Positions 1 to 19,998 of a stretch of DNA of 20,000 nt are shown here, piece after piece (the first letter of the stretch is position 1; every line of letters begins with the position of its first letter). Below the pieces are notes generated by a model. It saw nothing but the letters and a program-made list of their open reading frames with translations. It was not told the DNA's origin and searched no databases. The position numbers and the translations under genes are program-made. The stretch lies in the IMG/VR virus record IMGVR_UViG_3300025470_000023; one strand, 5' to 3'. Origin of the DNA: an uncultured virus (IMG/VR IMGVR_UViG_3300025470_000023) (taxonomy: Duplodnaviria; Heunggongvirae; Uroviricota; Caudoviricetes).

Positions 1-2
1 AG

Positions 3-3000
3 CGCCTCGCCAAGCTGGATATGAATAACCCAGAGCACATCGAAGCTATTTCCGATGAGCTAAACAAGACACGCGTGCAGATCGAGCCTGAGAAGCTGGC
101 TGCACTGTCAAATCATTTTGATGCTATTATAAAGCCTAGTAAAACAACAGAGCAGAAGGCTTATGGCGCGCAAGGCGAACAGAACATCATTCCAAAAAGG
201 CCACCAACTGTGGACCTCGGAACGCAAAGAAAAACTACAGAACTCTTTAGCCCAGAAGCGCAAAGAGGGATGGAGCTCCTTACCCAAAGGATACAAGATG
301 TCGCCCGAAGTTATACAGAAGAGGGGCGAAACCCGGCGCAAGAATTGCTTAGGCAAACGATACCTACACAAAAGTTGCAACAAGACATATTGGGTCATTT
401 GGACACCCTCGGGGAAACGGTACGAGCATCGGGTGATTATGGAGCAGTTGCTAGGGAGATCATTACTGAAATCGGAGCACGTTCACCACAAGGACGGGGA
501 CGGCTTGAACAACTCACCCGAAAACTTGGAGCTTCTGAGCAGCAGCGCCCACGCGAAAGAGCACCATCACTTACCTCTAGGGAAATGGGCCAAGAACCAC
601 GAGGTGTGCTTGAAATGCCACAGCAAGGAGCGAAAGCACCTAGCGAAAGGCTTATGCACGAGGTGTTACCAACAAAACAAGCAGGAGAAATAGATGCCCT
701 CAACAAGCAAATCTCAAGCACGCCTGATGGCGGCAGCGGCGCACAACCCGTCTTTCGCGAAGAAGGTGGGGATCAAGCAGTCAGTGGCCAAGGAGTGGAA
801 CCAAGCGGACAAGGGGAGCAAGCTGCTGAAGTCGAAGCCCCGAAAGAAGTAGAGGCCATCCAGCAAGAAGCGCGTTCGCTCCAACCGGGAGATATTATCG
901 CCAACGATATGGGTGATAGAGTTGAGATCGTGAAATTGGGTGGTACGCTTAAAGACGGCACACAGTTGTATGAATGGCGTGACCCTGATGACCCCAATTT
1001 TGGTCCTACGAAGATGGCTACTTCTTCTCCTGAAGGTAGTGAAGGCGTGCTCTCTATACATACACTGCTGTCCCCATACCAATATCTTACGCCTGAAGGC
1101 GAACGTAAGAGCGCTCCCGGCGCTACTATAACTAGAGCACAAGAAGCACCTAAAACGGAAGAAGAGCTCACAGCGGTAGAACCGCAAAACCCTCGCGAAG
1201 CGTGGGAAGCCATGCGTAGTGAAGGCGATCCTGACCATAAGGCCCTACCGCGCGAAGCGCAGATTGCATGGAAAAGAGCCTTTGATGACGGCGCTGCAGA
1301 CAAGGCTTTCTTCGATCAGCTAAAGACCGCGATCACTCCAGAAGCAGATAGGCAGGCTGGCGAGACAGAAGAAGCCGTTGCCCCTTCTAAAAAAGACTAC
1401 GATGGTGATGAGTTCCTCTATAGCCGCGGTGAGAAACCAAAAGAAGCAACTAGCCGGGAGATGATCCATGAGACGATCAAGAACATCACTGGTGATAAGC
1501 CTACCGCTTGGAGCGTAAAAATCCATGACACGGTAGAAGATGCACAGAATCATTTGAATGAGGCTGTTTATGAAAAGCTGGATAGGGATTACCCGGCTAT
1601 TATGCGGGCTATTGACCATTTTGAACGCACGGGAGAGCTAGACCCTAATGATCCTTACTTGCCTCGTGGTGGTGTTGTATCTCGTGAGCGGCATATAGAT
1701 ATCCTGCGCGGAATAGCCAGTGATATACGCAAGAATGCTGAAGCTAAAGGGCTTACGGGGTTAAAACTTGAGCCCGATGCTAGAGGTTTCGTGCTGGGGA
1801 ACAAAGCGCATTTCGTTGTAGAAAACATCCCTAAAGGGCGGGAACTTGGGGTGATGCTGCATGAGGTGGGTGATCACCTCGGTATGGAAAAACTGTTGGG
1901 TACAGAACAGCGCTCTAGACTCGCAGCTAAAGTTGCCGATTGGGCCAAGACGCATAAAGGTCTTGAAGGTGACGTTGCTCGCGCTGCTATTGAACGTTCT
2001 CGTGGTGATGAATCAGAACACATCGCTTACTTTGTAGAAGAAGCGGTTAACCACGGCGTTGACCCCACTGCATGGAAGCCGAACTCTGGGTTTAGTGTCT
2101 GGTTCCGTCAGCTCTTGGCTGCATTCAAAGCTGGCTTACGCAAACTCGGTATCAAGAATGTTGATCGTCTGTCTGCTCAAGATATCGTAGATATGGCCTA
2201 TGGTGCGGCGCACCTTGAGTTGCGCAGTCGTTGGCATGGTGCCCCTAAAGACTTCAGAAAATTCCAGCTCAAGTATCGCGGCACTGGGGAAGGCGGCTTA
2301 GAGCCGGGTGATAGAAACGCTGAACACTTTACCGACATGATTGGTTGGGGGCATTACATGTCCGGTCGGCGTGGTATCGCTGAAGAATATCGTGATCGCC
2401 TGTCTGCGCAAGCTAAGCGTGGTACTGGAGCATTAGACCTTAAAGACTATAAAAAAGATTTTGATGTAGGCACTGACAAAGCGACCGCTTTTAGCGATGC
2501 CTATGAGATTTTACATGAAACTCGGGGGGATTTTATTAAGGCTAGGCGGCGCATAGGTTTGCACGCGCAAGAATTCACTGATGCCCTAAATGGAGTGTGG
2601 CCCACACCTAAAAATCTTCCAGATCTTATAAAACAGGCAGAGAAAGAACGTGACCTCGCATTACAGTTTATAGACACGTTTGAAAAGCACGGAGCTGAGT
2701 ATATTCCGGGCGAGCAACCAGAACCCACACTCTATAAACTCGGCATCAACGCCTTCGACCATGAGCTTATCGACTGGGAAAAACCCCTGTCTGAGCAAAG
2801 CCCTGACGTACAGCGCGTAGCTAATCGCGTAAAGAAGAAGCTGGAAAAAGAAGGAGTGCTTGACGACGTTGTCGATACGCTTAATTCAAATTGGGAAGAC
2901 ATCTCAGGTAGAGACTTCTATCGGTATGTGATGCGTAAAGCACGGGATACCGATGCTATTCCAGAGTTGTATGACTTGAGCGCCGTTAACGCAGAGAAGG

Positions 3001-6000
3001 CGGCATCTGAGTATTTGGACTCTCAAGGGATCAAAGGCATCAAGTACCCGACCCAAGGAGGGCAGGGTCCGGGCCACAACTACGTCATCTTTAGCGACAA
3101 GAATGTTCATATCGCGGGTAAGAATGTGCCGCGCACTGAAGCTGAAGGTATTCGCTACTCGCGTGCTCCTGAAGGGGAAGAAGAACGTCCCCCGCTAACC
3201 AAGATTGATCGCAGCTCTACCCTAAAGACGATCGCTAAGACTTTGAAGCGCGCGGCGTTGGCGGTTAGTGATCCGAGTGCTATGTCTGAGGAGTATGCCA
3301 AGTTCCGGCGGCGGGTGATCGCTGAGTCTGCAGGTCTGACCAAAGCTCTCGAGAATGAGCCTACCTACGATCCTGATACCGGCATTCGCGTGGACTATCT
3401 GCGGAACCAATACGACAGTGCCTATCAGTTATCTCTGGAAGGTCTGTTCAATGGTGTGCCTGTGCTTGAGCCTAAGACGGGTGTTGTGCGTATTCAGCCG
3501 ACGACTCGTACCAATCTCGATCGCATCATGGCAGATGCAGCTAAGCTACCGCTCAAAGTCTCCTATGACGGGCAGAAAAAGGAACCGCTCGAAGTCATGG
3601 CGGATATCTTCCGTATCAAGATGGGTGAACAGGAACTCAAAGAATACGAAGAAGCCAAGGTTAAGCTAAGAGCAATCGAACAGTTGCCAGAAGCTACGCG
3701 CAATCAGACCGACACCAAGGCGGAAATGGATAGGCTTAAAGAGCTTATCACTAATCAAGAAAGAGGCATTGGTCGTGAGCGTAATGTCACCCGCGAAGAC
3801 ATTCGCTGGGCTAATGACGAGATTCAACACGTACCGGGAGTGCAGGATATTCTGGATCGTTGGGGTGAGACTAACCAAGAGCTGCTACGTTTTGCGCGTG
3901 ACACCAACTGGATCACTCCTGAGAAGTATGAAGAATGGTCGGAGCGGCCCTCATACATCCCCATGTATAAGCCGATGGAAGATATCCTAGCAGAGCGCGA
4001 CGAGACACCTGCATTCCCCGGTGGTGGTCCTAAGACTGTCGGTAAGCTGTTCGGTAAGACAGGTGCGGCTAGTGCATTCCCTGTGAATGTTTTTGAGAGC
4101 TTGTCTCAGCACTATACGTCGATGATCACCAACTCCATGATGAACAACGTCAAGTATAGAGCCTTCCAGCAGCTTGAACGGGTAGGGTTGGCAGAGCGCG
4201 TTGCACCCACATACAAGGGTAAGGATGCTGTAAAGGCGCGCGCCGCTGGTAAAGACTTCCTCTATAAAGTGAAGGACGAAGAGGCATTCCGTTCGCTGAC
4301 GATGGCGAATATGTACAGCAACCCGTTCCTTGATCTAGTGGCGATCCCGGCTAATGTGGTTCGCCGTACGGCGCTGTTCCTGAACCCTGCTTACTACTAC
4401 AGGACGATGATCCATGATCCTCTCGCCGCTACGCTGACTACGACAGCTAAAGGCGCGATCGGCCCTGTGACTCCTGCAGATGCCCTGTATCAGATAGGCA
4501 AGCGGGCTGCGGGTTTTGATAAGTCGGCTAAGGATCTGCAGTACTACGGAATCAGCGGGCTCGCTAACATGGACGCCAACATGCACCGTTTCGCGCGGGC
4601 TCTTGGCGACTCACCGAAATATAACAAGTGGCTCCAGTACATTGATAAGGTCCACTCTTCTTTCGATGACGCTACGCGTACCATCGTCTATGAGGCGGCT
4701 AAGAAGGAAGCGGCTAAGGATGGCATCACTGATCCGCAGGTGATTAACGATATCGCCGCTGTTAAGGCTCGGGACTTTGCTGACTTTGCGGCCAAGGGCT
4801 CTAGTCAGCTCGTGCGTATAGCAGGTAAGCAGACTCCGTTCCTTCACGCGCATTTTGTGGGTCTGGATAAAATGCTTCGCTCTGCTACAGGGCACGGTAA
4901 GGACTCCAAGGAAGGTAAGGCTCAGCGTGATCGGTTTGTCGCTGGCGCTACGCTTGCGGCGAGTGCTGTAGTGGCTATTACTCTCGCTAACATACGTGAC
5001 AAGCGATACCGGGACCTGCCTATCGGTGAGTGGTCCAAGAACATCATTGCTGGATTTGATGATGAAGGGCGCGCAATCAAGATCCCTGTACCACAGGAAA
5101 TTGGCTTCTGGTTCAAGTTTGTTCCTGAGCTCATGACCCGTATGCTGATGGGCGTTAGTGATAAGCCTGAAGCGAGCAAGGCATTTCACGGTATGGCGAT
5201 AGATACATTGCTTCCTCCGGGTCTGGCTGACCCGATCAGTATCGCGGTGCGTGGTTGGTTGCAGATGCAGACGAATACCGAGTTGCATAGTGGCCTCCCG
5301 ATTGAAAGCCCGCAGGAACAGTTGCTCCTGCCAGAAGACAGGGACAAGAGAGCGACTATCTTTAGTAAGGCTCTGCGTGATCAACTCAAGAAGTATGGGT
5401 TGTCGGAAGACTTCTCACCAGATAAGTTCGACAGCTTTATGCGCTCCTATCTCACTACAATCTGGGATAACTCTGCTCTGGCCGCGACGATGATCCATGA
5501 TGCCTATACAGGCAAACGCAGTCTGTTTGAACTGCCTTTCAACAAAGACTTCACGGAAGTGTACCCCGGCGCTAAGGCATTCTTCAGCAATCCGAGAAAC
5601 ATCTCAGCTACGCCGCGCTTCTACGATATGGCCAAGCCGCTCTATGAAACGCTCAAGTCAGTCAATGCGGCGGCACACGGAGAAATGGATGACTCCGTAG
5701 AACGGTTTGATGAGTTACGCAATGATCCTGTTGTGATGCAACGCTACCGTATGGCGAAAGTGGCGGCTAAGTATCGGTCTAAGATTTCAGCTTTGGAAAA
5801 GGCGATCGAACAGCTTGATAACAGGCAGGATCTCACTGAGGCGCAAAGGCGCAAACTTTACTGGGACCGCATCAAGGATCGCAATGAACTTGCTAGAACT
5901 GCTGTAAATGAGCTCTCCAAGGGCCTAATGCAGGACAAGAAGTTCAAGGACGATGTAGAGAAATCTTGGAAGCTCTCTGTGTCTCCTGAAGACCTCGAAC

Positions 6001-6047
6001 GCGAGATAGGTAAGTTCAAGGAAAATACAGGTGATACGGAAGAATAA
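3..6047 (+). CDS. Giant polyvalent phage protein, probably internal virion/ejection protein (zincin-like peptidase motif, ART-like region, LPD38-like C-terminus); 5'-truncated by window edge
   Basis: The frame is open from nt 3 (upstream of the ATG at 21) to TAA 6045-6047. Motifs: GVMLHEVGDH (HExxxH, ~1860-1877); WHG...GTGEG...GWGHY...DWEKPLSEQ...GIKGIKY...NYVIF (ART-like, ~2230-3115); IKIPVPQEIG...GLPIES...SPDKFDSFMRSY (LPD38-like, ~5040-5600); xYSR domain-boundary motifs (FLYSR, IRYSR). No Cys seen in 2008 aa. Confidence 0.85.
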   Translation, partial: RLAKLDMNNPEHIEAISDELNKTRVQIEPEKLAALSNHFDAIIKPSKTTEQKAYGAQGEQNIIPKRPPTVDLGTQRKTTELFSPEAQRGMELLTQRIQDVARSYTEEGRNPAQELLRQTIPTQKLQQDILGHLDTLGETVRASGDYGAVAREIITEIGARSPQGRGRLEQLTRKLGASEQQRPRERAPSLTSREMGQEPRGVLEMPQQGAKAPSERLMHEVLPTKQAGEIDALNKQISSTPDGGSGAQPVFREEGGDQAVSGQGVEPSGQGEQAAEVEAPKEVEAIQQEARSLQPGDIIANDMGDRVEIVKLGGTLKDGTQLYEWRDPDDPNFGPTKMATSSPEGSEGVLSIHTLLSPYQYLTPEGERKSAPGATITRAQEAPKTEEELTAVEPQNPREAWEAMRSEGDPDHKALPREAQIAWKRAFDDGAADKAFFDQLKTAITPEADRQAGETEEAVAPSKKDYDGDEFLYSRGEKPKEATSREMIHETIKNITGDKPTAWSVKIHDTVEDAQNHLNEAVYEKLDRDYPAIMRAIDHFERTGELDPNDPYLPRGGVVSRERHIDILRGIASDIRKNAEAKGLTGLKLEPDARGFVLGNKAHFVVENIPKGRELGVMLHEVGDHLGMEKLLGTEQRSRLAAKVADWAKTHKGLEGDVARAAIERSRGDESEHIAYFVEEAVNHGVDPTAWKPNSGFSVWFRQLLAAFKAGLRKLGIKNVDRLSAQDIVDMAYGAAHLELRSRWHGAPKDFRKFQLKYRGTGEGGLEPGDRNAEHFTDMIGWGHYMSGRRGIAEEYRDRLSAQAKRGTGALDLKDYKKDFDVGTDKATAFSDAYEILHETRGDFIKARRRIGLHAQEFTDALNGVWPTPKNLPDLIKQAEKERDLALQFIDTFEKHGAEYIPGEQPEPTLYKLGINAFDHELIDWEKPLSEQSPDVQRVANRVKKKLEKEGVLDDVVDTLNSNWEDISGRDFYRYVMRKARDTDAIPELYDLSAVNAEKAASEYLDSQGIKGIKYPTQGGQGPGHNYVIFSDKNVHIAGKNVPRTEAEGIRYSRAPEGEEERPPLTKIDRSSTLKTIAKTLKRAALAVSDPSAMSEEYAKFRRRVIAESAGLTKALENEPTYDPDTGIRVDYLRNQYDSAYQLSLEGLFNGVPVLEPKTGVVRIQPTTRTNLDRIMADAAKLPLKVSYDGQKKEPLEVMADIFRIKMGEQELKEYEEAKVKLRAIEQLPEATRNQTDTKAEMDRLKELITNQERGIGRERNVTREDIRWANDEIQHVPGVQDILDRWGETNQELLRFARDTNWITPEKYEEWSERPSYIPMYKPMEDILAERDETPAFPGGGPKTVGKLFGKTGAASAFPVNVFESLSQHYTSMITNSMMNNVKYRAFQQLERVGLAERVAPTYKGKDAVKARAAGKDFLYKVKDEEAFRSLTMANMYSNPFLDLVAIPANVVRRTALFLNPAYYYRTMIHDPLAATLTTTAKGAIGPVTPADALYQIGKRAAGFDKSAKDLQYYGISGLANMDANMHRFARALGDSPKYNKWLQYIDKVHSSFDDATRTIVYEAAKKEAAKDGITDPQVINDIAAVKARDFADFAAKGSSQLVRIAGKQTPFLHAHFVGLDKMLRSATGHGKDSKEGKAQRDRFVAGATLAASAVVAITLANIRDKRYRDLPIGEWSKNIIAGFDDEGRAIKIPVPQEIGFWFKFVPELMTRMLMGVSDKPEASKAFHGMAIDTLLPPGLADPISIAVRGWLQMQTNTELHSGLPIESPQEQLLLPEDRDKRATIFSKALRDQLKKYGLSEDFSPDKFDSFMRSYLTTIWDNSALAATMIHDAYTGKRSLFELPFNKDFTEVYPGAKAFFSNPRNISATPRFYDMAKPLYETLKSVNAAAHGEMDDSVERFDELRNDPVVMQRYRMAKVAAKYRSKISALEKAIEQLDNRQDLTEAQRRKLYWDRIKDRNELARTAVNELSKGLMQDKKFKDDVEKSWKLSVSPEDLEREIGKFKENTGDTEE
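163..693 (+). CDS. HNH endonuclease (NUMOD3-like N-terminus, HNH core, C-terminal Cys finger) nested in the +1 frame of the giant gene
   Basis: 176 aa. YEHRVIMEQLLGRSL...EHVHHKDGDGLNNSPENLELL...HAKEH is a typical phage HNH core. SFQKGH and GYKMSPEVIQKR resemble NUMOD3 motifs. C-terminal CLKC...HLAKGLCTRCY. Confidence 0.88.
   Translation: MARKANRTSFQKGHQLWTSERKEKLQNSLAQKRKEGWSSLPKGYKMSPEVIQKRGETRRKNCLGKRYLHKSCNKTYWVIWTPSGKRYEHRVIMEQLLGRSLLKSEHVHHKDGDGLNNSPENLELLSSSAHAKEHHHLPLGKWAKNHEVCLKCHSKERKHLAKGLCTRCYQQNKQEK
694..852 (+). CDS. Small basic phage protein (52 aa) nested in the +1 frame of the giant gene; absent from the ORF track
   Basis: ATG 694 directly follows the HNH stop (TAGATG), with AGGAG at 683-687. 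Translation: MPSTSKSQARLMAAAAHNPSFAKKVGIKQSVAKEWNQADKGSKLLKSKPRKK*, TAG 850-852. It resembles, from recall, a widespread small phage protein type MPSxSKxQxxxMAAxAHNPxFAKKVG. Confidence 0.8.
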   Translation: MPSTSKSQARLMAAAAHNPSFAKKVGIKQSVAKEWNQADKGSKLLKSKPRKK

Positions 6048-6077
6048 AAAGAACCCCGCGGGAGTGAGGCGCGGGGT
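6046..6077 (-). terminator. Intrinsic terminator for the minus-strand replication block, at the convergence point
   Basis: 8-bp stem ACCCCGCG (6053-6060) / CGCGGGGT (6070-6077) with a 9-nt loop, followed on the minus strand by TCTTTTT. Confidence 0.7.
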
Positions 6078-6140
6078 ATAAAAAGGGGGGATTGAACAAT
6101 GATTCGACCGCGCGTAGTTTATGAGGCGGTCTATAGGCTG

Positions 6141-9065
6141 TCAATGTTCCTGAAGTGAGCTCTCATTCAGGCCGATCAGGGTAGCGTCGAAGCAATGTGC
6201 GAGGACAGACCCGCCGGGGAGCTTGGTGCCTTTACCTAGCTGACACCGCTCATCGCGCAGGATCACCTGCTCGTCTCTCAGGCCGTTGATGAAGGGGCCG
6301 TAGGGCAAGCGCCGCAGGCTGCACCAATTCCGCAGGACATTCGACGCGATGTAGAGCATCTTGGTGTCTGGCTCGAACCGCCCGACCAACTCACCCGTAG
6401 CTAACTGAGGTGGCACCGATGCCGCTAATACGCCGTCCACAGGGTCTAGATTGCCCCCTACGACCACGATGTTCCTGTGGTGCTCGTTGATGAATTCACC
6501 GATGACTTCGTAGGTGTTGTTGCTAGACTCCTGCTCGATGACTTCCTTCGTATCCTTCACCTGCTCCAAGGCCCAATTCCATACGCGCTCAATGTCGATA
6601 TCATGCAGACCCAACTGCTTGGCGATCTCAGCCCCAGTAAAGGCGCAGGACAGAGCCGCTGAATAGAAGCGATGCTCCTGACTGAACTCAGCCTCTCTAT
6701 CGAAACGGACCTTGATCTCGTTTCTGCGAAGCAGTACGGATTCCAGATTGGGCACCACGAACTTCATGAACTCCTCACCCGCAAGGCCGTAGTTGCCGAG
6801 GAGCAGGTGGTTGAACAGATAGTCAGATTCTTCCTTGGTCAGTGTCTCATCCTTCTGAATCTCGATCTCAAGAATACGATACCGTTCCCCGTCTGAGGAT
6901 GCCTTGAACGACTTGATCGTATCGTAGAGGCTGTTGTTCCCCGAGGTCAGCACCATCGTAGCCCATGAGGCGTTGTTCTTACGCTCCGCATTAACCTGAG
7001 CCTGCATACGGTTACGCCCTCTGTTGAAGGATATGCGGAACACGAAGTCACTGGCCTGCTCTGGCTCGATGTTGGTGATTTCGTCCACGGTCATGATGAT
7101 GTGGTTCAGTACACCGATGCGGCTCTCTCGTGAGAGCGGAGTGTCATTTTCGTTGAGCAGGGCTTCCTGCGGGTGCCCCCAGACGCTATTCGCCGCCATC
7201 TGCGCCGTAGACTTACCTACACCTGATGCTGTGTTGGTCAGGTGCGTGATCATACTGCCGAGCCCTGCGAACTTGTATAGAGCAGACCCGAAGCTCATAA
7301 AGAGAGCCAGTGCTCGCGCCTCGTTCCCCGGCTTGTTGTACGTGTTGATAACTTGCTTCCATGCGTCCAGTCGGCCCTCTGATCGGTAGATAGGCGCGAT
7401 CTCCTTGGTCGCTGATGAGGGTGGGCTATAAACGACTGTGCCCTGATTGGTGATTTCTCGTCCGCCGATGACGAACCGTGTGTCATTGTCGTGCCATCCG
7501 AATTGCATACGCGCTTGCTCCGCTTTGTCTTGTTCCTGTAGAAACCGCACCCAATCGTTGATATATCGACGAATTAGGTCCATACGCCGATCAATCTCGG
7601 CTACACCTTTACTGGATAGAATCTCCTGACACTTATCCTTCTTGGTGATCTGGCTCAGCGCCGCAGTGAATTCATCCATGCCGTCTTTCGGTAGGATGTG
7701 CGCGATCTGAATCATTTCGTCCCGCTCGGGGTCGTTAATACGTTTCTGCACCCACAGGTCATAGGGATAGATCAGGGTCTCATCGAGGTCTTCATCCCCC
7801 GTTTCCTCACCGTCATCATCCTTGCTTTTCCCTAGCTTGCCTTTGATTGCGACACCGCCGTTCTTGGGGCGAAGCCACGGCTTGGGGTATTCCAGAGGGA
7901 TTTCGATATCTACGAACTCCTTGAGGCCCTTGTGCCAGATCTGTTCCTTGAGATTATCCGTAGCAGTAGCCGGAGTGATGATGATCCCCAAAGCGATCGG
8001 ACTGTTGATTTTGCCTCTCAGGGGGCAACCCAAGCATATAGCGGCGCGCCCTTGATGCGCCTGAAAGGTACTGCACTTATGCGGAAAGGCTTCTAGCGTA
8101 CCCTCGGCCTTGGCGATCGTATCTTCCGGGTCATAGGCGGGGTGCTGATTAGAGATCTTGTGGATGGCAGTCTCCCAATCCACGCAACGCCTAGCGATAG
8201 ATAGTACACTGCGCCAGACTGGTTCTGGAGTACCCTCATGATCACGAGCGGCCATGGCGATCTGTTCGCACCCCATGCTACGGGAGATCTTCTGCTTGAC
8301 CTGCTTCCCGTCTTTGTCGGTTACGGTCTCGATCACATCTTCGTAGGTCAGGCTTTTCTTTACGATCTTCGAGAACTTGGCCTCGATATCCTTCTCTACG
8401 ACGGCCTTCATGATGGCCTCATCGCGCCCGGACATTTCCCGTGCTTCGACGAGTCCTATCAGCAATTTGAATTGGGGTAGATCGACAGGCTCCGCGAGCT
8501 TAATGGCGCGGACTTCTTTGGGGTTCGAGCGATCCTTGTTGTTGAATGTGCCGGGCACACGCAGGATACGCGCACCATCAGCCGTGACCACGGGATCAGC
8601 ATCGAAGCTGTAGTTTTCAGACGTACGCTTCAGAGCATCAGCTACTGGCTTCCAATCATTATAGGTCAGCGGTGTTTCGAGCGCCCAATACAGATGGAGC
8701 CCACGCCCTGAATTGACGATCGTGGGTAAGGGGAGGCGAGTCTCCTCTAGAAATGTTTGCAGGGCAAGCATCCCTGCCTTCTGATTCTCATACGGCTTGC
8801 CGGGGCCGCAGTCGATATCCATGTAAAAAGATTTATAACCCTCGGCATTCTTCGCGCTACGCTTACCGGCAGGGTCCTTGAATGTGGCGCAACCAAAGTA
8901 GACTTCGCGCCCAGCTTCCGACAGGGCGTTGATCGTGCCTTCTGCTTCTTCTACGGAAGCATGAAAACTTTGCTTGGGCGGTTGTGAGCTATCGCTCATC
9001 AGCCCCATGATGCAGACATGTCCGGTCGGGGCTAAAACCAGACGGAAAAACTCACTCCTTGACAT
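6141..9065 (-). CDS. DNA primase-helicase (N-terminal prim-pol/RepB-like domain, central Cys cluster, DUF927-like region, P-loop helicase)
   Basis: Motifs SFYMDIDCG, IVNSGRGLHLYW, DGARILRVPGT, CxxC cluster, QFGWHD, Walker A SGVGKST and Walker B MTVDE. ATG 9065 is preferred (974 aa) because the longer track start runs through the upstream terminator. Confidence 0.88.
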   Translation of the reverse strand: MSRSEFFRLVLAPTGHVCIMGLMSDSSQPPKQSFHASVEEAEGTINALSEAGREVYFGCATFKDPAGKRSAKNAEGYKSFYMDIDCGPGKPYENQKAGMLALQTFLEETRLPLPTIVNSGRGLHLYWALETPLTYNDWKPVADALKRTSENYSFDADPVVTADGARILRVPGTFNNKDRSNPKEVRAIKLAEPVDLPQFKLLIGLVEAREMSGRDEAIMKAVVEKDIEAKFSKIVKKSLTYEDVIETVTDKDGKQVKQKISRSMGCEQIAMAARDHEGTPEPVWRSVLSIARRCVDWETAIHKISNQHPAYDPEDTIAKAEGTLEAFPHKCSTFQAHQGRAAICLGCPLRGKINSPIALGIIITPATATDNLKEQIWHKGLKEFVDIEIPLEYPKPWLRPKNGGVAIKGKLGKSKDDDGEETGDEDLDETLIYPYDLWVQKRINDPERDEMIQIAHILPKDGMDEFTAALSQITKKDKCQEILSSKGVAEIDRRMDLIRRYINDWVRFLQEQDKAEQARMQFGWHDNDTRFVIGGREITNQGTVVYSPPSSATKEIAPIYRSEGRLDAWKQVINTYNKPGNEARALALFMSFGSALYKFAGLGSMITHLTNTASGVGKSTAQMAANSVWGHPQEALLNENDTPLSRESRIGVLNHIIMTVDEITNIEPEQASDFVFRISFNRGRNRMQAQVNAERKNNASWATMVLTSGNNSLYDTIKSFKASSDGERYRILEIEIQKDETLTKEESDYLFNHLLLGNYGLAGEEFMKFVVPNLESVLLRRNEIKVRFDREAEFSQEHRFYSAALSCAFTGAEIAKQLGLHDIDIERVWNWALEQVKDTKEVIEQESSNNTYEVIGEFINEHHRNIVVVGGNLDPVDGVLAASVPPQLATGELVGRFEPDTKMLYIASNVLRNWCSLRRLPYGPFINGLRDEQVILRDERCQLGKGTKLPGGSVLAHCFDATLIGLNESSLQEH

Positions 9066-9087
9066 AACGCCGCCTGAACTAAAGTGG

Positions 9088-9112
9088 AAGAAAAGGGGCG
9101 GCGAACCGCCCC
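9088..9112 (-). terminator. Intrinsic terminator with UUCG tetraloop between the SSB-like gene and the primase
   Basis: The minus strand reads GGGGCGG-TTCG-CCGCCCC-TTTTCTT, starting 12 nt after the stop at 9125. Confidence 0.85.
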
Positions 9113-9124
9113 CACCGACGAAAC

Positions 9125-10075
9125 TTAGTCGTCGTCTCCCCACTCAGCCAGAATGGAGGTCAGGTCTTGTTCACCCGCTTTCGGTGCAGGTGCAGAGGAC
9201 TTCTTTTCTTTCACGACAGGTTCAGACACAACCTCAGCTTCTTCTACAGGAGCCGGAGTCGGAGGAGCGATAGCCGCCGGAGCGGGGCGCGGAGGCATGG
9301 TAGGTGCCGCAGTCTTACGTGCGTCCATTGCTGCCGGAGTATAGCTGATGGCGTTTAGTGCATCTTCACCCTGCCCCTTTTCGATGATGATCGCGTACTG
9401 TTCATCGGACAGGTAGTCCACAGGACGGAAGAGCAGTTTAGGCGTAGCCGATGAAGTATCGAAACGCATCTCAGTGATGACGTTACGAATACCCGCACCA
9501 TGACCGTAGAGGAACTTGAGGTACGCACGGAACGGCATCATGCCATTGACGGGATCACCGAACACGGACTGCGAAGGCAGGACGAGCTGATACACATCAG
9601 AGTTTTCAAGGTTAGCCGTAAGAGCTTCAGGGTCCTGACTATTGTTAGCCAATACAACTGCGAGACGCTGACTGAAGCGGCAGGCACGGGAGGTGCCTTG
9701 ACCTGATCCCTTGGCATTCATTGGGCAGTTAGCACAGGAAGCAGACTGTGGGCTGGCCGCGCGAGCATCGGGCTTTGTACCATCGTTGGAGAAACAGGTC
9801 GGCTGTGTGACTTCACCTTCCTTGTAGACACCATCGTAGTAGGTCCGGCTCACCTTCTCAGCGGCGTTGACGATCACGATATCCATAGAGCGATCGTCGC
9901 TCTTGGTGACTTCCTGCCCATCGACAATCATACGGAAGACGTTGCCACGGATGGAGATACGCTTGTTGCCTGACCCTGACGAGCCGATCATGCGCTTGGT
10001 CAGGTCATCCGTATTGTTACGGACATGGTTAGGTACAACAGCTTTTTGATTACGGAAAATGGTCAAATCAGCCAT
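9125..10075 (-). CDS. Putative single-stranded DNA-binding/annealing protein
   Basis: RISIRGNVF N-terminus, Cys cluster (PTCFS, CANCP, RACRF), Pro/Ala linker and acidic aromatic tail (ILAEWGDDD). It lies between helicase and primase. GAGGA is 7 nt upstream of ATG 10075. Confidence 0.65.
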   Translation of the reverse strand: MADLTIFRNQKAVVPNHVRNNTDDLTKRMIGSSGSGNKRISIRGNVFRMIVDGQEVTKSDDRSMDIVIVNAAEKVSRTYYDGVYKEGEVTQPTCFSNDGTKPDARAASPQSASCANCPMNAKGSGQGTSRACRFSQRLAVVLANNSQDPEALTANLENSDVYQLVLPSQSVFGDPVNGMMPFRAYLKFLYGHGAGIRNVITEMRFDTSSATPKLLFRPVDYLSDEQYAIIIEKGQGEDALNAISYTPAAMDARKTAAPTMPPRPAPAAIAPPTPAPVEEAEVVSEPVVKEKKSSAPAPKAGEQDLTSILAEWGDDD

Positions 10076-10077
10076 GT

Positions 10078-10323
10078 TCAAATCCTCGTTAATGTATTTG
10101 ATTGTTCTGCAAGAGCGAGCACATCCGCTCGCTTGAAGCGCACTTGTTGGTTAAAGCCCACTCGGTAGGCTGTCAAAATCCCCCGCTTTCGCCAGTTGTG
10201 GAGGGTTGCTCGGGACACCCCAAGCTCCGCCATAACCTCAGCGGTGGTCATCACATTTTCCTCCGTAGGGGGAGGATCATAAGGCTCGAAAAATTCATCG
10301 TCAATCTCATCAAAATCATCCAT
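10078..10323 (-). CDS. Excisionase-like/MerR-type HTH DNA-binding protein
   Basis: MTTAEVMAELGVSRATLHNWRKRGIL...VRFKRADV. The start is either ATG 10323 (TGATG coupling) or ATG 10251 (GGAGG upstream). Confidence 0.8.
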   Translation of the reverse strand: MDDFDEIDDEFFEPYDPPPTEENVMTTAEVMAELGVSRATLHNWRKRGILTAYRVGFNQQVRFKRADVLALAEQSNTLTRI

Positions 10324-10715
10324 CACTTTTTCCTCACGCTAATGACGTACTCGCTGTCACTCGACAGCCCCATAGGCACCATCTCCGGGTTCTCCTCCAA
10401 CAAGTTCTTCATATTGGTCTGATGGATGCGTTGTTCCAGAAGGTGGTACGCATCGTGCTCCTTGATAAACTGGTACATGGACTCCCAATCGGTGGTCTTG
10501 TACCTGACGCTCAGCTTGCGCGTTGCTGTACCGTGGGCTGTCTTGACACTGTCTGCGCCCATCTCCTTGCAGATTTCGAGGAGCATATCGCTCACCTTGG
10601 TCTGCTTCTCCTTGAGCACGGCGTCTGCCGCTTCAAAGTCCTGCGACAGTTTCTGTCGCGCTGAGCGCAACTTGATGTATGCGCTGATCAGCTTGTCTGC
10701 TGTTACTTCACTCAT
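10323..10715 (-). CDS. Phage protein of the replication module (coiled-coil N-terminus), function unknown
   Basis: 130 aa; AGGAG RBS; DSVKTAHGT and TTDWESMYQFIKEH...LLEQRI segments. Confidence 0.75.
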   Translation of the reverse strand: MSEVTADKLISAYIKLRSARQKLSQDFEAADAVLKEKQTKVSDMLLEICKEMGADSVKTAHGTATRKLSVRYKTTDWESMYQFIKEHDAYHLLEQRIHQTNMKNLLEENPEMVPMGLSSDSEYVISVRKK

Positions 10716-10757
10716 CGTCCACTCCTAAATCAACCGCTACACTAACGGCGTATGGTC

Positions 10758-10785
10758 ATTTTACACACTTATATTACCCTGTCAA
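10758..10785 (-). promoter_or_regulatory. Sigma70-type promoter overlapping the helicase 3' end
   Basis: TTGACA (10785-10780), 16-nt spacer, TAAAAT (10763-10758); 42 nt upstream of ATG 10715. Confidence 0.7.
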
Positions 10786-13269
10786 CTCCTGTTGATACAT
10801 ATCTAACAAAGTTTCTTGCGCCAGAGTCCTTTCCTCCAAAGCTTTGTAGAGCTGGCGCTCCACGGCTGAGCTAACCAACTTCACCACAAGGCACGGGTTT
10901 CTCTGCCCCGCTCTATGCACTCGGGCGTTCGCTTGTAGCCAGATTTCTGCGGAGGTCACAGGACCGAACCAGATGATCGTATTGGCCGCTGTCAAAGTGA
11001 CACCATGCGCGGCTGACTGAGGCTGAATGATTAGAACGTGCGGGTTGGGCGTAGTCTGGAAGTCATTGAAAATCTCTGCCCTGCGTTTGGCTGACACCCC
11101 GCCGTGTATGGTGGCCGTAGTGATGCCCTGCTTCTCAAGGTACGTCTGTACCATGTCGATTGAATGTCTGAAGTTGCAGAAGATCAGAACCTTGTGGCTA
11201 CTCTCCTGTACGACCTCAAGCATCTCCTCTAACTTATTCTTACAGTCGAACTCGACAACCTCGCCGCTATCCGAATACACCGACCCACAGTTGTGGACGA
11301 TGACGGGACCTTCTTTCCCCGCTACAACAAACCTAGACCGGGGTCCGCAGTTAAGTAGGTCGTAAGTTGCTTCCCTTTGTTTGGGGACGCTTTCAGTGCC
11401 AAATCTATAGGCCAACCCGCCTTCAGGCGTCTTCTCAAGGTGACAGACTTGAGTCCGTATTCCTCTGCTGCTTGTGCTACAGTCATTTTTCCATTCGGTG
11501 TGTCTATAAGAATGTTCACCCTCGTGTTGCGCCCCTGATCCTTGGGTGTAGCCCACCGGCAATTCTCCGGTGAATACGGGCCGTTGTTGTCTATCCTGTC
11601 TAGCGTAAGCCCGTCCTTGTGCATAGGCCCCATATCCGACCAGAACATCTCGAATGAAGACCGCCAGCGTTCGCACACCACAATTCCACGTTCTCCGTAA
11701 TTTTTGTAGTCCTTGTCTAAAGGATCGTGACAACGCGCTACCATGCTGTGATAGTTTGAATACACTGGCTTTTTGCTCATTTTGTGTTTCTCGTTGCCGT
11801 GGTGGCATCCGCAACTTCTTGGGTGCTTCCTGTGCTTTGCTCTTAGATACTGACTCCTGCGAATTACGCGCCGCCCACAATCGCACAGGCAAAGCCACGT
11901 CGCGCATTGCACCGAAATTCCGCTCGTCGTTCCAGCTCTCTCTATAACTGTCAGGTACCCGAACTTCTGTCCTATTAAATCTTTTGCTGGATTTGCCATA
12001 AATAATATCCTCCGCTGTCTGCCATCCTGCGGTGGTGAGAACCCTATGGTCCGAAGTCATACGTACACCGTAGCACTCGCGCACTTCTTTAAGCCCACGA
12101 CATGCCAGCCCATCATGTGCTACCCATTCTTCACCATCCCACACTCTATGCGCTGTGGTTACTTCTTGAATCGGTACCCACCCAACGTCTGTAAGTACAG
12201 GTGTATTATACGCAATACAAGATATTTGTAACAGTTTGTTCATACCCACTGCCGCATTGAACGCTGTGATATCTGCACTGGCAACTTGGATCAGCATCTC
12301 TTTCTTGAGGAGCTTGTAGTATTTCTCCTGTTGCGCTGTGAGGGGCGTGTCACGCTCAGAGTAAAGAAGCTCTGGTAGATCGAGGCACTCATCCTTGGTG
12401 AACCTGATGGCAGGCTGAAGCACCTCATGGACTACCTGCTGTGCCTCGGGTTTGGGGATGTATTTGAACGCGCTGATCTTCAGCATGACTCGATCGCGGA
12501 ACAACCCTACGAACTGCGGAACACTCGTGGGATTCATCATCTTGGCGAGGCCGTAGGCATCGAGTGGGCTCTGTGCCGCAGGTGTGCCCGTCAGCATCCA
12601 CACCCATGTGTCCGGTCCGATCAGGCTATTGATCATCTTCCAACGCTTGGTCGTTGCTGTCTTGATGTAGTTGGCCTCATCCAGAACAATAAGGTCGAAC
12701 CCACCCAGAGCCAGCTCGCTACGCACGGACTCCACACCATCGTAGTTGATAATGACGAACTCGGCATTGGAGTCGATCACCTTGGCTCGCTTGGCTTTCG
12801 ATCCGTGGGCAATGTCTACCCTACGCTTCATGACCGTCCTGAATAGATCTGCTCTCCATGCTGAGTCCATGATAGACAGAGGGCAAATGACGAGTACCCT
12901 GCGAATGAACCCGAGCTTCATGAGATAGTCAGCCGCCCAGATAACGGACACGGTTTTGCCTAGCCCCTGCTCGTTCCAGCAAAATGCTCTACGGTTGAGG
13001 GTCAGAAAGGCGGCGGTTTCCTTCTGGTGATCGAAGGGCGTGTATCTCCCCGGCCAATCGTATTGACGCACGATAGGAGCCGGTGCTTTCTTGAAGCCCA
13101 GATTGCGAAGGATCTTTGTGTTAGGCAGGTTCCATTTGACTGCCACCTCGTAGCCGTTGCCATTGGGTAGCGAAACTTCCTTCACTACCGCAGACTTCGG
13201 AATCACTTCGGTGATCTTCTCTGGATTGCGGGTGCGCACGATGAGTGCGCGGTCCTCTACGATTTCCAT
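10774..13269 (-). CDS. SNF2-like superfamily 2 helicase precursor containing an intein (831 aa precursor, ~521 aa spliced)
   Basis: Motifs EQGLGKT, IINYDG, LDEA, MLTGTP, HGVTLTAA and QANARVHRAGQ. GAGGT lies upstream of ATG 13269. Confidence 0.92.
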   Translation of the reverse strand: MEIVEDRALIVRTRNPEKITEVIPKSAVVKEVSLPNGNGYEVAVKWNLPNTKILRNLGFKKAPAPIVRQYDWPGRYTPFDHQKETAAFLTLNRRAFCWNEQGLGKTVSVIWAADYLMKLGFIRRVLVICPLSIMDSAWRADLFRTVMKRRVDIAHGSKAKRAKVIDSNAEFVIINYDGVESVRSELALGGFDLIVLDEANYIKTATTKRWKMINSLIGPDTWVWMLTGTPAAQSPLDAYGLAKMMNPTSVPQFVGLFRDRVMLKISAFKYIPKPEAQQVVHEVLQPAIRFTKDECLDLPELLYSERDTPLTAQQEKYYKLLKKEMLIQVASADITAFNAAVGMNKLLQISCIAYNTPVLTDVGWVPIQEVTTAHRVWDGEEWVAHDGLACRGLKEVRECYGVRMTSDHRVLTTAGWQTAEDIIYGKSSKRFNRTEVRVPDSYRESWNDERNFGAMRDVALPVRLWAARNSQESVSKSKAQEAPKKLRMPPRQRETQNEQKASVFKLSQHGSALSRSFRQGLQKLRRTWNCGVRTLAVFIRDVLVGYGAYAQGRAYARQDRQQRPVFTGELPVGYTQGSGAQHEGEHSYRHTEWKNDCSTSSRGIRTQVCHLEKTPEGGLAYRFGTESVPKQREATYDLLNCGPRSRFVVAGKEGPVIVHNCGSVYSDSGEVVEFDCKNKLEEMLEVVQESSHKVLIFCNFRHSIDMVQTYLEKQGITTATIHGGVSAKRRAEIFNDFQTTPNPHVLIIQPQSAAHGVTLTAANTIIWFGPVTSAEIWLQANARVHRAGQRNPCLVVKLVSSAVERQLYKALEERTLAQETLLDMYQQELTG
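11290..12219 (-). mobile_element. Intein (310 aa) in the helicase
   Basis: Block A CIAYNTPVLTDVGWVPIQEV (Cys codon 12219-12217), block B MTSDHRVLT, block F TYDLLNCGPRSRFVV and block G VIVHN followed by +1 Cys. The ligated exteins read KLLQIS/CGSVYSDSGE. Confidence 0.92.
11322..11999 (-). CDS. HNH-family homing endonuclease encoded in the +1 frame inside the intein
   Basis: 225 aa: DLIGQKFGYLTVIERA...WLCLCDCG...SCGC, YKNYGERGIVVCERW, LTLDRIDNNGPYSPENCRWATPKDQGRN, and a C-terminal HTH-like segment. GGAGG (12013-12009) lies 9 nt before the ATG. Confidence 0.9.
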   Translation of the reverse strand: MANPAKDLIGQKFGYLTVIERAGTTSGISVQCATWLCLCDCGRRVIRRSQYLRAKHRKHPRSCGCHHGNEKHKMSKKPVYSNYHSMVARCHDPLDKDYKNYGERGIVVCERWRSSFEMFWSDMGPMHKDGLTLDRIDNNGPYSPENCRWATPKDQGRNTRVNILIDTPNGKMTVAQAAEEYGLKSVTLRRRLKAGWPIDLALKASPNKGKQLTTYLTADPGLGLL

Positions 13270-13321
13270 GTGTACCTCTGATAGCAACCACGTTAAGGCC
13301 GTGGCAGGAGCCTATCCAACA

Positions 13322-16323: not shown

Positions 16324-16619
16324 TCTTGTCTGCTCCATTGGTCGAGCATTGTTTTTAATTCGTCCACATTCACTTCGTTAACGACGATAGCGAAGCCACC
16401 ACAGCTTTTTATCTGGGCGATCTCCCTGTCCTGTAGTGCTGTGGTTTTCCCCTTTCCGGCCTTTGCCTCGATCGCAAAGAACCGACCACTCAGACAGCCA
16501 ACGAAATCTGGAATCCCAGCTCTGCCATAGCCATTGGCGGGTGGCATGAAGAAATAGCAACCGGGAACAGACTCGAGGACCTTCTTTATCTTGGCTTTTA
16601 TTTTTCCCTCTGGCGTCAT
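16311..16619 (-). CDS. VRR-NUC domain nuclease
   Basis: MTPEGKIK...GIPDFVGC...FFAIEAKA...TALQDREIAQIKSCGG. Confidence 0.88.
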   Translation of the reverse strand: MTPEGKIKAKIKKVLESVPGCYFFMPPANGYGRAGIPDFVGCLSGRFFAIEAKAGKGKTTALQDREIAQIKSCGGFAIVVNEVNVDELKTMLDQWSRQEWIF

Positions 16620-19019: not shown

Positions 19020-19425
19020 CACCCCCTCCTATCTCGTGGTGTTTTTCTGCGAAACGGACGCCAGCTACAAATGTTAAATACTCTGGGGTTCCCATGTTAG
19101 GCAGTTCCTCCTGCGTCATCGGCTTCCTTGCTGGCGAGGGTCTGGTGTAGAGAGCGCGGCGTTTATATTCTGGGTACATCCCGGCGTCATCGAATACGTC
19201 CTTAGCTACATCAATCCACGCAGTGCTGGTTGATCCTTCAGCCATTGCTATTTGATACACAGGCTCTGCTTCTGGTTCTGGTCTGGTGTAGAGGGGTTCA
19301 AACCCATCAGTTTTATGAAACGCTACTATCTGATCTCCATTAGGCGTTGTTCTCATCCACGCCACAGGCTTATCTGCTTCTGGCTCGGCGGCGAGGTTCT
19401 TACGATTGTCTTGCGTAGTTTCCAT
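19012..19425 (-). CDS. Accessory protein with two PVxx...LYTRP modules; start lies inside the upstream HNH gene
   Basis: AEPEADKPVAW...PLYTRP / EPEAEPVYQ...ALYTRP; GAGGAG 4 nt before ATG 19425. Confidence 0.65.
   Translation of the reverse strand: METTQDNRKNLAAEPEADKPVAWMRTTPNGDQIVAFHKTDGFEPLYTRPEPEAEPVYQIAMAEGSTSTAWIDVAKDVFDDAGMYPEYKRRALYTRPSPARKPMTQEELPNMGTPEYLTFVAGVRFAEKHHEIGGGDE
19139..19293. repeat. 14-nt direct repeat (LYTRP module ends)
   Basis: GGTCTGGTGTAGAG at 19139-19152 and 19280-19293; also TCTGCTTCTGG at 19265-19275 and 19373-19383. Confidence 0.7.
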
Positions 19426-19909
19426 GATGCTCCTCTCTGGCTTTTTGCGCGGCTAACACAGCTTCCTCAACAGTCTTAAATGTTCCGATATTTATTTGCT
19501 TGTTGTGTTTCCATATAGAAACCCTGTATGTGCCATATTTCTCTCTGTAGTAGACGTTTTTGATGCCAGAAATGTTGGTCGTTTGAATTTTGCGGTTCCA
19601 ATTATTTTCTGTTGAATTTGCCGGTCTTAAGTTTTCAATTTTGTTGTCCAATCCGTTCCCGTTTATGTGGTCAAGAATGGCATCAGGCGCAGAACCATGA
19701 AACAAAAACCAAACGACATGATGTGCGCGTACTGATTTACCCGGAATTGCTTGAACGCTGTAGTATTTCTTTCGACTAGCCAACGATCCCGCTGGTTTAC
19801 CCTTCTTATTCCTTCCGCTATCCACTTTCCAAACCAAGCAACTTGGGCTTGATTCATCGTATTCATAGCGTTCAGCGGCCCGTCTCAGCAGTTCGGTTGC
19901 AGTACTCAT
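19400..19909 (-). CDS. Free-standing HNH-AP2 homing endonuclease
   Basis: RAHHVVWFLFHG...ILDHINGNGLDNKIENLR...ENNWN plus AP2-like SGIKNVYY...YRVSI...IGTFKTVEEA. GGGAGG and an ATGA overlap at ATG 19909. Visibly AT-richer than the flanks. Confidence 0.88.
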   Translation of the reverse strand: MSTATELLRRAAERYEYDESSPSCLVWKVDSGRNKKGKPAGSLASRKKYYSVQAIPGKSVRAHHVVWFLFHGSAPDAILDHINGNGLDNKIENLRPANSTENNWNRKIQTTNISGIKNVYYREKYGTYRVSIWKHNKQINIGTFKTVEEAVLAAQKAREEHHGNYARQS

Positions 19910-19998
19910 GCTTCCTCCCAAATACCAAGCGCCACATAAAGATCCTTCTTGCATTCGTATTCGGCAATGTCCTCGTGCAAACTGTCTCGGCCAAAGGC
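19906..19998 (-). CDS. 3' end of a hypothetical gene (partial)
   Basis: Open frame AFGRDSLHEDIAEYECKKDLYVALGIWEEA* ending at TGA 19908-19906, overlapping the next ATG. Confidence 0.5.
   Translation of the reverse strand, partial: AFGRDSLHEDIAEYECKKDLYVALGIWEEA

Follow-up and report, generated by a model that had tools for sequence, protein, structure and literature searches.

How do two nuclease genes come to lie inside two other genes of the same phage, each on its host's strand and each one base out of its host's frame, and does that shared geometry amount to a strategy? The question is raised by a stretch of 20,000 nucleotides (nt), here called the window, from an uncultured virus of the Caudoviricetes (IMG/VR record IMGVR_UViG_3300025470_000023), whose whole genome sequence (G000) is 35,499 bp long, comes from fresh water and has a guanine-plus-cytosine (GC) content of ~51%. 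Two HNH-type open reading frames (ORFs) are nested in the window, ORF1 inside the gene for a giant protein with an LPD38 domain and ORF2 inside a helicase gene, and a third HNH gene, HNH3, is not nested and serves as a comparison. We consider it probable (about 0.8) that ORF1 and ORF2 are two separately acquired selfish homing-endonuclease cassettes, each lodged by its own route in an essential-looking gene that is left unbroken, and that their common +1 offset reflects descent plus coincidence. The genes concerned are as follows.

163..693, plus strand: nested ORF1 (P0001, 176 aa), a gene of homing-endonuclease type with an HNH_3 domain, offset +1 from the frame of host 1
3..6047, plus strand: host 1, a giant ORF of 2645 aa with an LPD38 domain, of which the window has the 3′ 2014 codons
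11322..11999, minus strand: nested ORF2 (P0002, 225 aa), with zinc-ribbon, HNH-like (DRID...N) and helix-turn-helix parts, +1 to the helicase/intein frame
10774..13287, minus strand: host 2, an SNF2-family helicase gene split by an intein, from Pfam and PHROG matches
19400..19954, minus strand: HNH3 (P0003), the non-nested comparison HNH_3 gene; an alternative start is the second ATG, at 19909

The nested starts are offset from the host frames by 163 − 21 = 142 nt (ORF1) and 13287 − 11999 = 1288 nt (ORF2), each 1 mod 3, which confirms the same-strand, +1 nesting of both genes reported in the initial annotation. Its readings that both starts lie in the context TTATGGC, with host codons TAT GGC, and that the two nested proteins share no evident similarity agree with the sequence and with an hhalign comparison of P0001 with P0002 (E 0.19). 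None of the 13 other alternative-frame ORFs in the window (99-257 aa) has a Pfam match, and ORF1 and ORF2 are therefore not part of a general excess of such frames.

Selection on the overlapping frames

At the +1 offset, a stop can arise in the host frame only where an HNH codon ending in T is followed by AA, AG or GA. T-ending codons occupy 0/40 of these at-risk sites in ORF1 (13/80 elsewhere) and 0/52 in ORF2 (41/128 elsewhere), and 14/46 in HNH3 (34/97 elsewhere). Two kinds of shuffle were run (N=3000), the one resampling synonymous codons from genome codon usage and the other permuting each ORF's own synonymous codons. Genome codon usage predicts 13.05 host-frame stops in ORF1 and 15.35 in ORF2, where none is observed, and stop-free resamples numbered 0/3000 for each; among own-codon permutations, 46/3000 were stop-free for ORF1 and 0/3000 for ORF2. 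In the control gene HNH3 the equivalent frame contains 14 stops, as against 13-13.8 expected, in keeping with the stops that the initial annotation had seen there. Off-frame stops, for which that annotation had proposed a synonymous-shuffle test, are thus depleted in both nested ORFs and not in HNH3. The open host frames are not a product of chance; they are kept by selection.

For ORF2, the target of that selection can be read from a comparison with seven relatives' loci, which comprise four distinct sequences. Position 3 of the HNH codons takes 54-86 of the 90-158 substitutions, and identity within the overlap is 76-88% in the HNH frame, 56-73% in the host frame and 54-72% in the third frame, which is unused. 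The bias towards position 3, together with a host frame that is conserved about as well as an unused one, indicates that purifying selection acts on the HNH protein and that the only constraint on the host frame is to remain free of stops.

The helicase insert and ORF2

Host 2 has Pfam matches to SNF2-rel_dom (6e-22) and Helicase_C (7.8e-18) and a PHROG match to phrog_62 (3.2e-99). Its product carries an insert of ~310 aa between LLQIS and CG.VY that is absent from the helicases of Pseudomonas phage Rollin, Rhizobium phage RHph_TM3_14A and Acinetobacter phage Effie, and from 49 of the best 120 database homologues (519-528 aa, the closest 94% identical). The initial annotation had rightly placed ORF2 within a long host ORF and did not notice that the insert is an intein, whose parts are arranged as follows.

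11290..12219, minus strand: intein, 310 aa, helicase residues 357-666, from its absence in homologues, its motifs and an AlphaFold (AF2) model
12009..12013, minus strand: GGAGG Shine-Dalgarno sequence, 9 nt 5′ of the ORF2 ATG, inside intein codons A-E-D-I-I
11323..11364, minus strand: dual-coding stretch, with intein block F in the host frame over the last 14 ORF2 codons

The motifs in question are block A (CIAYNTPVLT), block B (MTSDHRVLT, with TxxH), block F (YDLLNCGPRSRFVV) and block G (VIVHN, followed by Cys+1), and the splicing residues (Cys1, TxxH, and HN followed by C) are invariant in 9/9 aligned sequences. In the AF2 model, which was built on nine sequences, residues 1-75 and 280-310 are confident and beta-rich (predicted local distance difference test, pLDDT, 78-87) and residues 77-279 fall below 50. 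When the model was compared with 48,161 PDB chains, the top 27 matches were all inteins or Hint domains (Z 8.4-13.7, root-mean-square deviation (rmsd) 2.1-2.9, 106-114 residues aligned). Together, the motifs and the predicted fold show the insert to be an intein, divergent in sequence, that is expected to splice.

The endonuclease domain of a canonical intein sits between blocks B and F. ORF2 takes up that linker (helicase residues 430-656), one base out of frame. Its product matches the PHROG families phrog_374 (2.8e-60) and phrog_3377 (5.1e-53), both annotated as HNH endonuclease, and finds no Pfam HNH match even at E 10. In its motif, LDRIDNNG...NCRW..Q..N, Arg replaces the first catalytic His, as it does in 15/15 aligned nested and free-standing relatives. 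An hhalign comparison of P0002 with P0003 aligns the motif at a weak E of 0.26. The AF2 model of P0002 has a mean pLDDT of 80.4, with tail residues 216-225 below 50, and its best fold match, to the PacI HNH restriction enzyme, is a weak one (Z 6.2, where 8 is advised; rmsd 2.5; 75 residues aligned).

The frame of ORF2 is closed by a stop 19 codons 5′ of its start, and among the start contexts of 12 relatives inspected, most have a GGAG-type motif ahead of the ATG; the recurring Shine-Dalgarno sequence and ATG, and the closed frame upstream, favour independent initiation over frameshifting. ORF2 would accordingly be read as the mobility gene of an intein set between LLQIS and C, a separate gene with its own GGAGG-N9-ATG, placed at +1 in the B-F linker. 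A ribosome translating the helicase would pass through the ORF2 region as a ~200-residue unstructured spacer, and protein splicing would then remove intein and spacer together.

Other helicase homologues (P0049, P0077, P0086 and P0145) carry a different insert, which Pfam recognizes as a canonical intein (PF14890, PF13403, PF07591), so that this helicase family has been invaded by more than one intein type. The PHROG family phrog_93, annotated as 'endonuclease', also matches the N-terminal part of the helicase intein.

Relatives of the intein-plus-ORF2 arrangement

The loci of P0002 relatives that were examined number 105 (27 and a further 78), and the relative is nested in 24/105 (17/27 and 7/78), within hosts of ~500-1100 codons, some of them cut at contig ends. 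All 24 share the +1 offset, a host frame with 0 stops and the same intein motifs. Their hosts are SNF2-type helicases, family A DNA polymerases (in Hamiltonella phage APSE-1, Caulobacter phage RW and Shewanella phage SFCi1) and two other genes. None of the P0002-relative loci examined was open in the remaining same-strand frame. In 9/78 loci an antisense frame free of stops covered the HNH match; these were set aside, since none exceeded 903 nt, roughly what the gene itself measures, and so none is a host ORF; locus L145, with a host-offset open frame of merely 180 aa, was not counted as nested.

Free-standing relatives are not commonly open at the host offset, as might have been expected if openness were a property of these HNH subtypes. 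Stops there number 10-44 in 10/10 free-standing P0002 relatives, with a median of 12 among the 78 further loci, and 5-30 in 30/30 P0001 relatives. Relatives of P0003 were found in viral contigs at only four loci, too few for a control tally.

The nested homologues in APSE-1 (P46 within P45), RW and SFCi1 are 41-45% identical to P0002 over 86-98% of its length, and the intein motifs, the +1 offset and the absence of host-frame stops are common to them and to the phage studied here; their host is a family A DNA polymerase, where here it is an SNF2 helicase. RefSeq already annotates APSE-1 P46 as an 'HNH endonuclease' inside P45. The RefSeq P46 (locus L001) starts at 2717 and covers the C-terminal 140 aa only. 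Its frame opens at 2471 and has a GTG at 2489, 228 nt ahead of the annotated start, and a tblastn match to P0002 within 2489-3139 begins at 2501, so that the nested gene of APSE-1 probably exceeds its annotated length by ~76 codons.

ORF1 and its insertion in the giant LPD38 gene

P0001 matches Pfam HNH_3 over residues 87-131 (2.7e-11; 43.3 bits against a cut-off of 24.8), and its HNH residues (H...N...H) are read from the sequence as HVHHKDGDGLNNSPENL...H. It matches 12 PHROG families, 11 of them annotated as HNH endonuclease, and its full-length database relatives are at best 66% identical. In a phage collection, tblastn with P0001 gave no match at 1e-5, and blastn with the window gave none for 1-2500 and five short matches for the helicase gene. 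The sequence around ORF1 includes two further features.

128..714, plus strand: the ORF1-bearing cassette, delimited to about ±15 nt by blastn and alignment against the insertion-less L072 and by protein alignment with P0009-P0014
154..159, plus strand: a weak Shine-Dalgarno-like AGAAGG, 3 nt ahead of the ORF1 ATG, whose function is suggested by its sequence

The ORF1 frame is open for only 10 codons 5′ of its start (TAA at 130-132). Host 1 begins 1893 nt before the window, which places ORF1 at residues ~685-861 of 2645 aa; the insert is thus internal, not N-terminal. It is absent from 6/8 giant-protein homologues compared (P0009-P0014) and present in 2/8, those of this genome and of a 99% relative. 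The six insertion-less homologues read ...HFDA-[IL]KPKE.PSAEQIPE.GA-PDGGSG... at the site, which is a low-complexity linker with PEAP-type repeats on one side and a Gly/Gln/Glu-rich stretch on the other. A search for DNA of the insertion-less allele (query P0009) found nothing among viral contigs, and a metagenome scan gave two loci. Relative to the insertion-less metagenome locus L072, the cassette at ~128-714 replaces ~41 bp for a net gain of 546 bp (182 codons), and the host frame is preserved. Contigs assembled from four DNA runs gave insertion-bearing fragments only and no joint skipping the ORF1 insert.

A comparison with locus L071 shows 0 mismatches over window positions 120-831 and 75 in the 3119 nt upstream, and an identical cassette amid a diverged upstream flank is consistent with recent transfer. 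No Rfam family, which would cover described intron families only, matched the whole window at gathering thresholds or positions 1-900 at E<=1, and the peptide encoded by the insert in the host frame has no intein boundary motifs (Cys/Ser/Thr ... HN) and no Cys. ORF1 would on this evidence be an HNH_3 gene dropped, with a leader of ~35 nt and a trailer of ~20 nt, into the low-complexity linker of the LPD38 protein, where a host ribosome would read it in the HNH gene's −1 frame and add ~180 residues of linker. In both genes selection would act on the HNH protein, and on the host frame only for freedom from stops, through the avoidance of T-ending codons before AA, AG and GA. The homing role of ORF1 and ORF2 is putative, and the signs of it are indirect: a patchy distribution and an identical cassette in diverged flanks.

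The giant gene is a mosaic, in that window positions 849-3176 (plus strand) have no blastn match in L071 and the flanks are 97-98% identical; the giant-protein homologues range from 1937 to 2645 aa.

Competing explanations

The initial annotation proposed that +1 nesting may be a recurrent, selected strategy in this lineage. A possible reason for such selection is that at no other offset can all host-frame stops be erased silently, by NNT-to-NNC changes. Both nested ORFs of this phage and all 24 nested relatives are +1, no T-ending codon stands at an at-risk site (0/40 and 0/52), and at the other offset Met followed by I, M, T, N or K yields a stop that cannot be removed silently, one such pair occurring in ORF2. 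Taken as a count of events, this evidence shrinks: the 24 relatives belong to one intein family with one origin, so that the geometry of ORF2 is inherited and not a repeated choice, and two independent events are left, which would agree on the offset by chance with a probability of 1/2. Host-frame stops at the other offset could be repaired nearly as well, the unavoidable ones numbering 0, 1 and 0 in ORF1, ORF2 and HNH3, and that offset starts with fewer stops, a median of 8 versus 12 in free-standing relatives and 3-19 versus 5-30 in P0001 relatives; on those 0, 1 and 0 stops the idea that the genetic code singles out +1 was dropped. Two published cases also lie in what the available parts of their sources call a different frame, the ShiLan HNH 'in the third frame' (PMC11855218) and an EndoVII-like homing endonuclease of an intein 'in reading frame 3' (bioRxiv 10.1101/2025.01.02.630785). 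We therefore regard a selected +1 strategy as unlikely. The TTATGGC shared by the two starts, which the initial annotation had itself suspected of being a coincidence, is just that by the counts: the window has 3 copies where 1.95 are expected, 62/200 shuffles have at least 3, and the sequence is kept in 3/13 of the relatives' loci inspected (L004, L006 and L007). The common +1 would instead have been inherited with the intein family by ORF2 and have arisen for ORF1 in an independent single event, with TTATGGC shared by accident.

Three further explanations concern expression and function. Programmed +1 ribosomal frameshifting from the host frame, which would yield host-HNH fusions, fits the same-strand, +1 placement of both genes and the T-rich run (ATT ATT TAT) ahead of the ORF2 start; as the HNH frames are closed by stops 10 (ORF1) and 19 (ORF2) codons upstream, an ATG with a GGAG-type Shine-Dalgarno sequence recurs in most relatives even amid differing sequence, and no conserved slippery site was seen, we give it very little credence. 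That the ORF1 cassette is removed by an unrecognized intron or by a cryptic protein-splicing or cleavage element, its open frame being incidental, finds some room in the limits of Rfam to described intron families and in the ShiLan work, whose authors could not fully exclude splicing (PMC11855218). For an intron there would be no need to keep 177 host codons clear of stops in a stretch where 13 are expected, and the lack of any Rfam match, of Cys/Ser/Thr ... HN boundary motifs and of Cys in the host-frame insert likewise makes removal highly unlikely. Decay, or chance frames without present function, might be suspected from the missing canonical first His of P0002 and the weak ribosome-binding site of ORF1; set against this are strong family matches for both ORFs, the purifying selection seen in the HNH frame, the existence of full-length relatives and the failure of the window's other alternative-frame ORFs to match Pfam, which leave it next to no probability.

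The reading of two separately acquired cassettes, which we prefer, must itself answer several points that weigh against it. Own-codon permutation leaves ORF1 stop-free in 1.5% of cases, and its low overall use of T at third codon positions (0.07), which accounts for part of its openness, could be a pre-adaptation and not the result of purging. The SD-like element of ORF1 is merely 3 nt from the ATG, the zero-mismatch tract shared with L071 falls within a region of uneven divergence, and the retention of the read-through linker in the mature giant protein is presumed. No Pfam or NCBIfam intein model matches the helicase insert (E up to 1-10), nor does a phmmer search of PDB, and with these sequence searches empty the intein was resolved by structure prediction alone. 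The P0002 protein, with Arg for His and a weak match to PacI, may bind DNA without cutting it or may cut by a variant mechanism.

Relation to known systems

Each of the two layouts belongs to a kind already described, ORF2 and its intein with APSE-1 P45/P46 and ORF1 with the ShiLan type. The ShiLan domain and the Pacc40 gp60 insertion are hidden HNH endonucleases, out of frame within DNA methylases of actinophages (Arsenault, Gosselin, Gogarten 2025, PMC11855218). ORF1 resembles them in its patchy insertion, its stop-free host frame, its lack of intein or intron signs and an HNH start of its own near the 5′ end of the insert. It differs in its host, a giant LPD38 protein entered at a low-complexity linker and not a DNA methylase; in its +1 offset, as against the 'third frame'; in an ATG with an SD-like element, as against a leaderless GTG; and in its genome, which is of middling GC (~51%) and from fresh water.

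ORF2 is comparable in plan to the non-canonical inteins of actinobacteriophages, in which, according to the accessible portion of a preprint, a splicing domain in the host frame is combined with a nuclease carried as a second ORF between the blocks; such elements are proposed there to have arisen when a free-standing endonuclease gene invaded an intein (bioRxiv 10.1101/2025.01.02.630785). Four layouts are named in that portion, an in-frame HNH, an antisense LAGLIDADG, an antisense VSR-like and an EndoVII-like nuclease in frame 3, and a same-strand, +1 HNH-like ORF such as ORF2 is not among them. Fractured genes, in which a free-standing endonuclease gene lies between the halves of a split intein (Dassa et al. 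2009, PMC2677866), are likewise comparable: the gene that the intein interrupts contains the endonuclease as an ORF of its own, and short coding overlaps occur between the 3′ end of that ORF and the downstream part of the intein (PMC2677866). The host of a fractured gene is split into two ORFs, whose products are rejoined by trans-splicing (PMC2677866), whereas here the host frame is continuous.

No new principle is established by these comparisons, and a +1 frame rule is not supported by the available tests. What the locus adds is the presence in one mid-GC freshwater phage genome of both published routes for hiding an out-of-frame nuclease gene, intein-buffered and read-through; the extension of read-through insertion to a giant LPD38 polyvalent protein; and a simple mark, readable in codon choice, of selection that keeps the host frame open. 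The contention of the initial annotation that gene callers miss such nested ORFs holds for both: neither exact protein occurs in a 15-billion-protein collection, in which the exact host 1 protein is found on 8 contigs and the helicase, in its 831-aa form from the ATG at 13269, on 11. With both genes overlooked by standard gene calling, phage catalogues undercount nucleases.

We note, as a doubtful extension, that in mid-GC phages +1 may be the preferred offset for hiding a nuclease gene, as the only one that allows silent T-to-C erasure of all stops. Were this so, the rule of no T-ending codon before AA, AG or GA could serve generally to detect read-through selfish genes without any annotation, and the phage would display three modes of piggy-backing, these being intein-buffered, by read-through linker and by 5′ fusion to a resident gene.

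Other features of the window and genome

The initial annotation called HNH3 free-standing, which is right in that it is not nested and wrong in that its 5′ end is fused to a resident gene. Over 144 nt, the first ~26 codons of HNH3 and the DNA upstream share 99.3% identity with a related phage in IMG/VR (locus L152, 2934-3966), in which the ORF that shares the HNH3 5′ end runs on as an unrelated protein of ~150 aa. Homology to L152 is back at 99% right after the HNH3 stop, and a 491-nt HNH cassette stands in place of 782 nt of resident DNA. The shared 5′ end and the homology resuming after the stop indicate that the HNH3 cassette was fused in frame to the 5′ end of the resident gene.

The 35,499-bp genome sequence is probably incomplete, as contigs as long as 68,681 bp carry the same giant protein and helicase. 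A related phage, on a 67-kb contig, appears to be without either nested element, on the sole basis of matching longest-contig sizes for P0012 and P0053. The runs that contain half or more of the words sampled from window positions 1-900 are all freshwater metagenomes, and among 24 runs listed no RNA run contained the sequence. A 102-aa ORF at 16311-16619 (minus strand), over the start of a family A DNA polymerase gene, has no Pfam match at 0.001; it carries a PD...EAK motif, is VRR-NUC-like in appearance and matches phrog_93 'endonuclease' at 1.2e-17.

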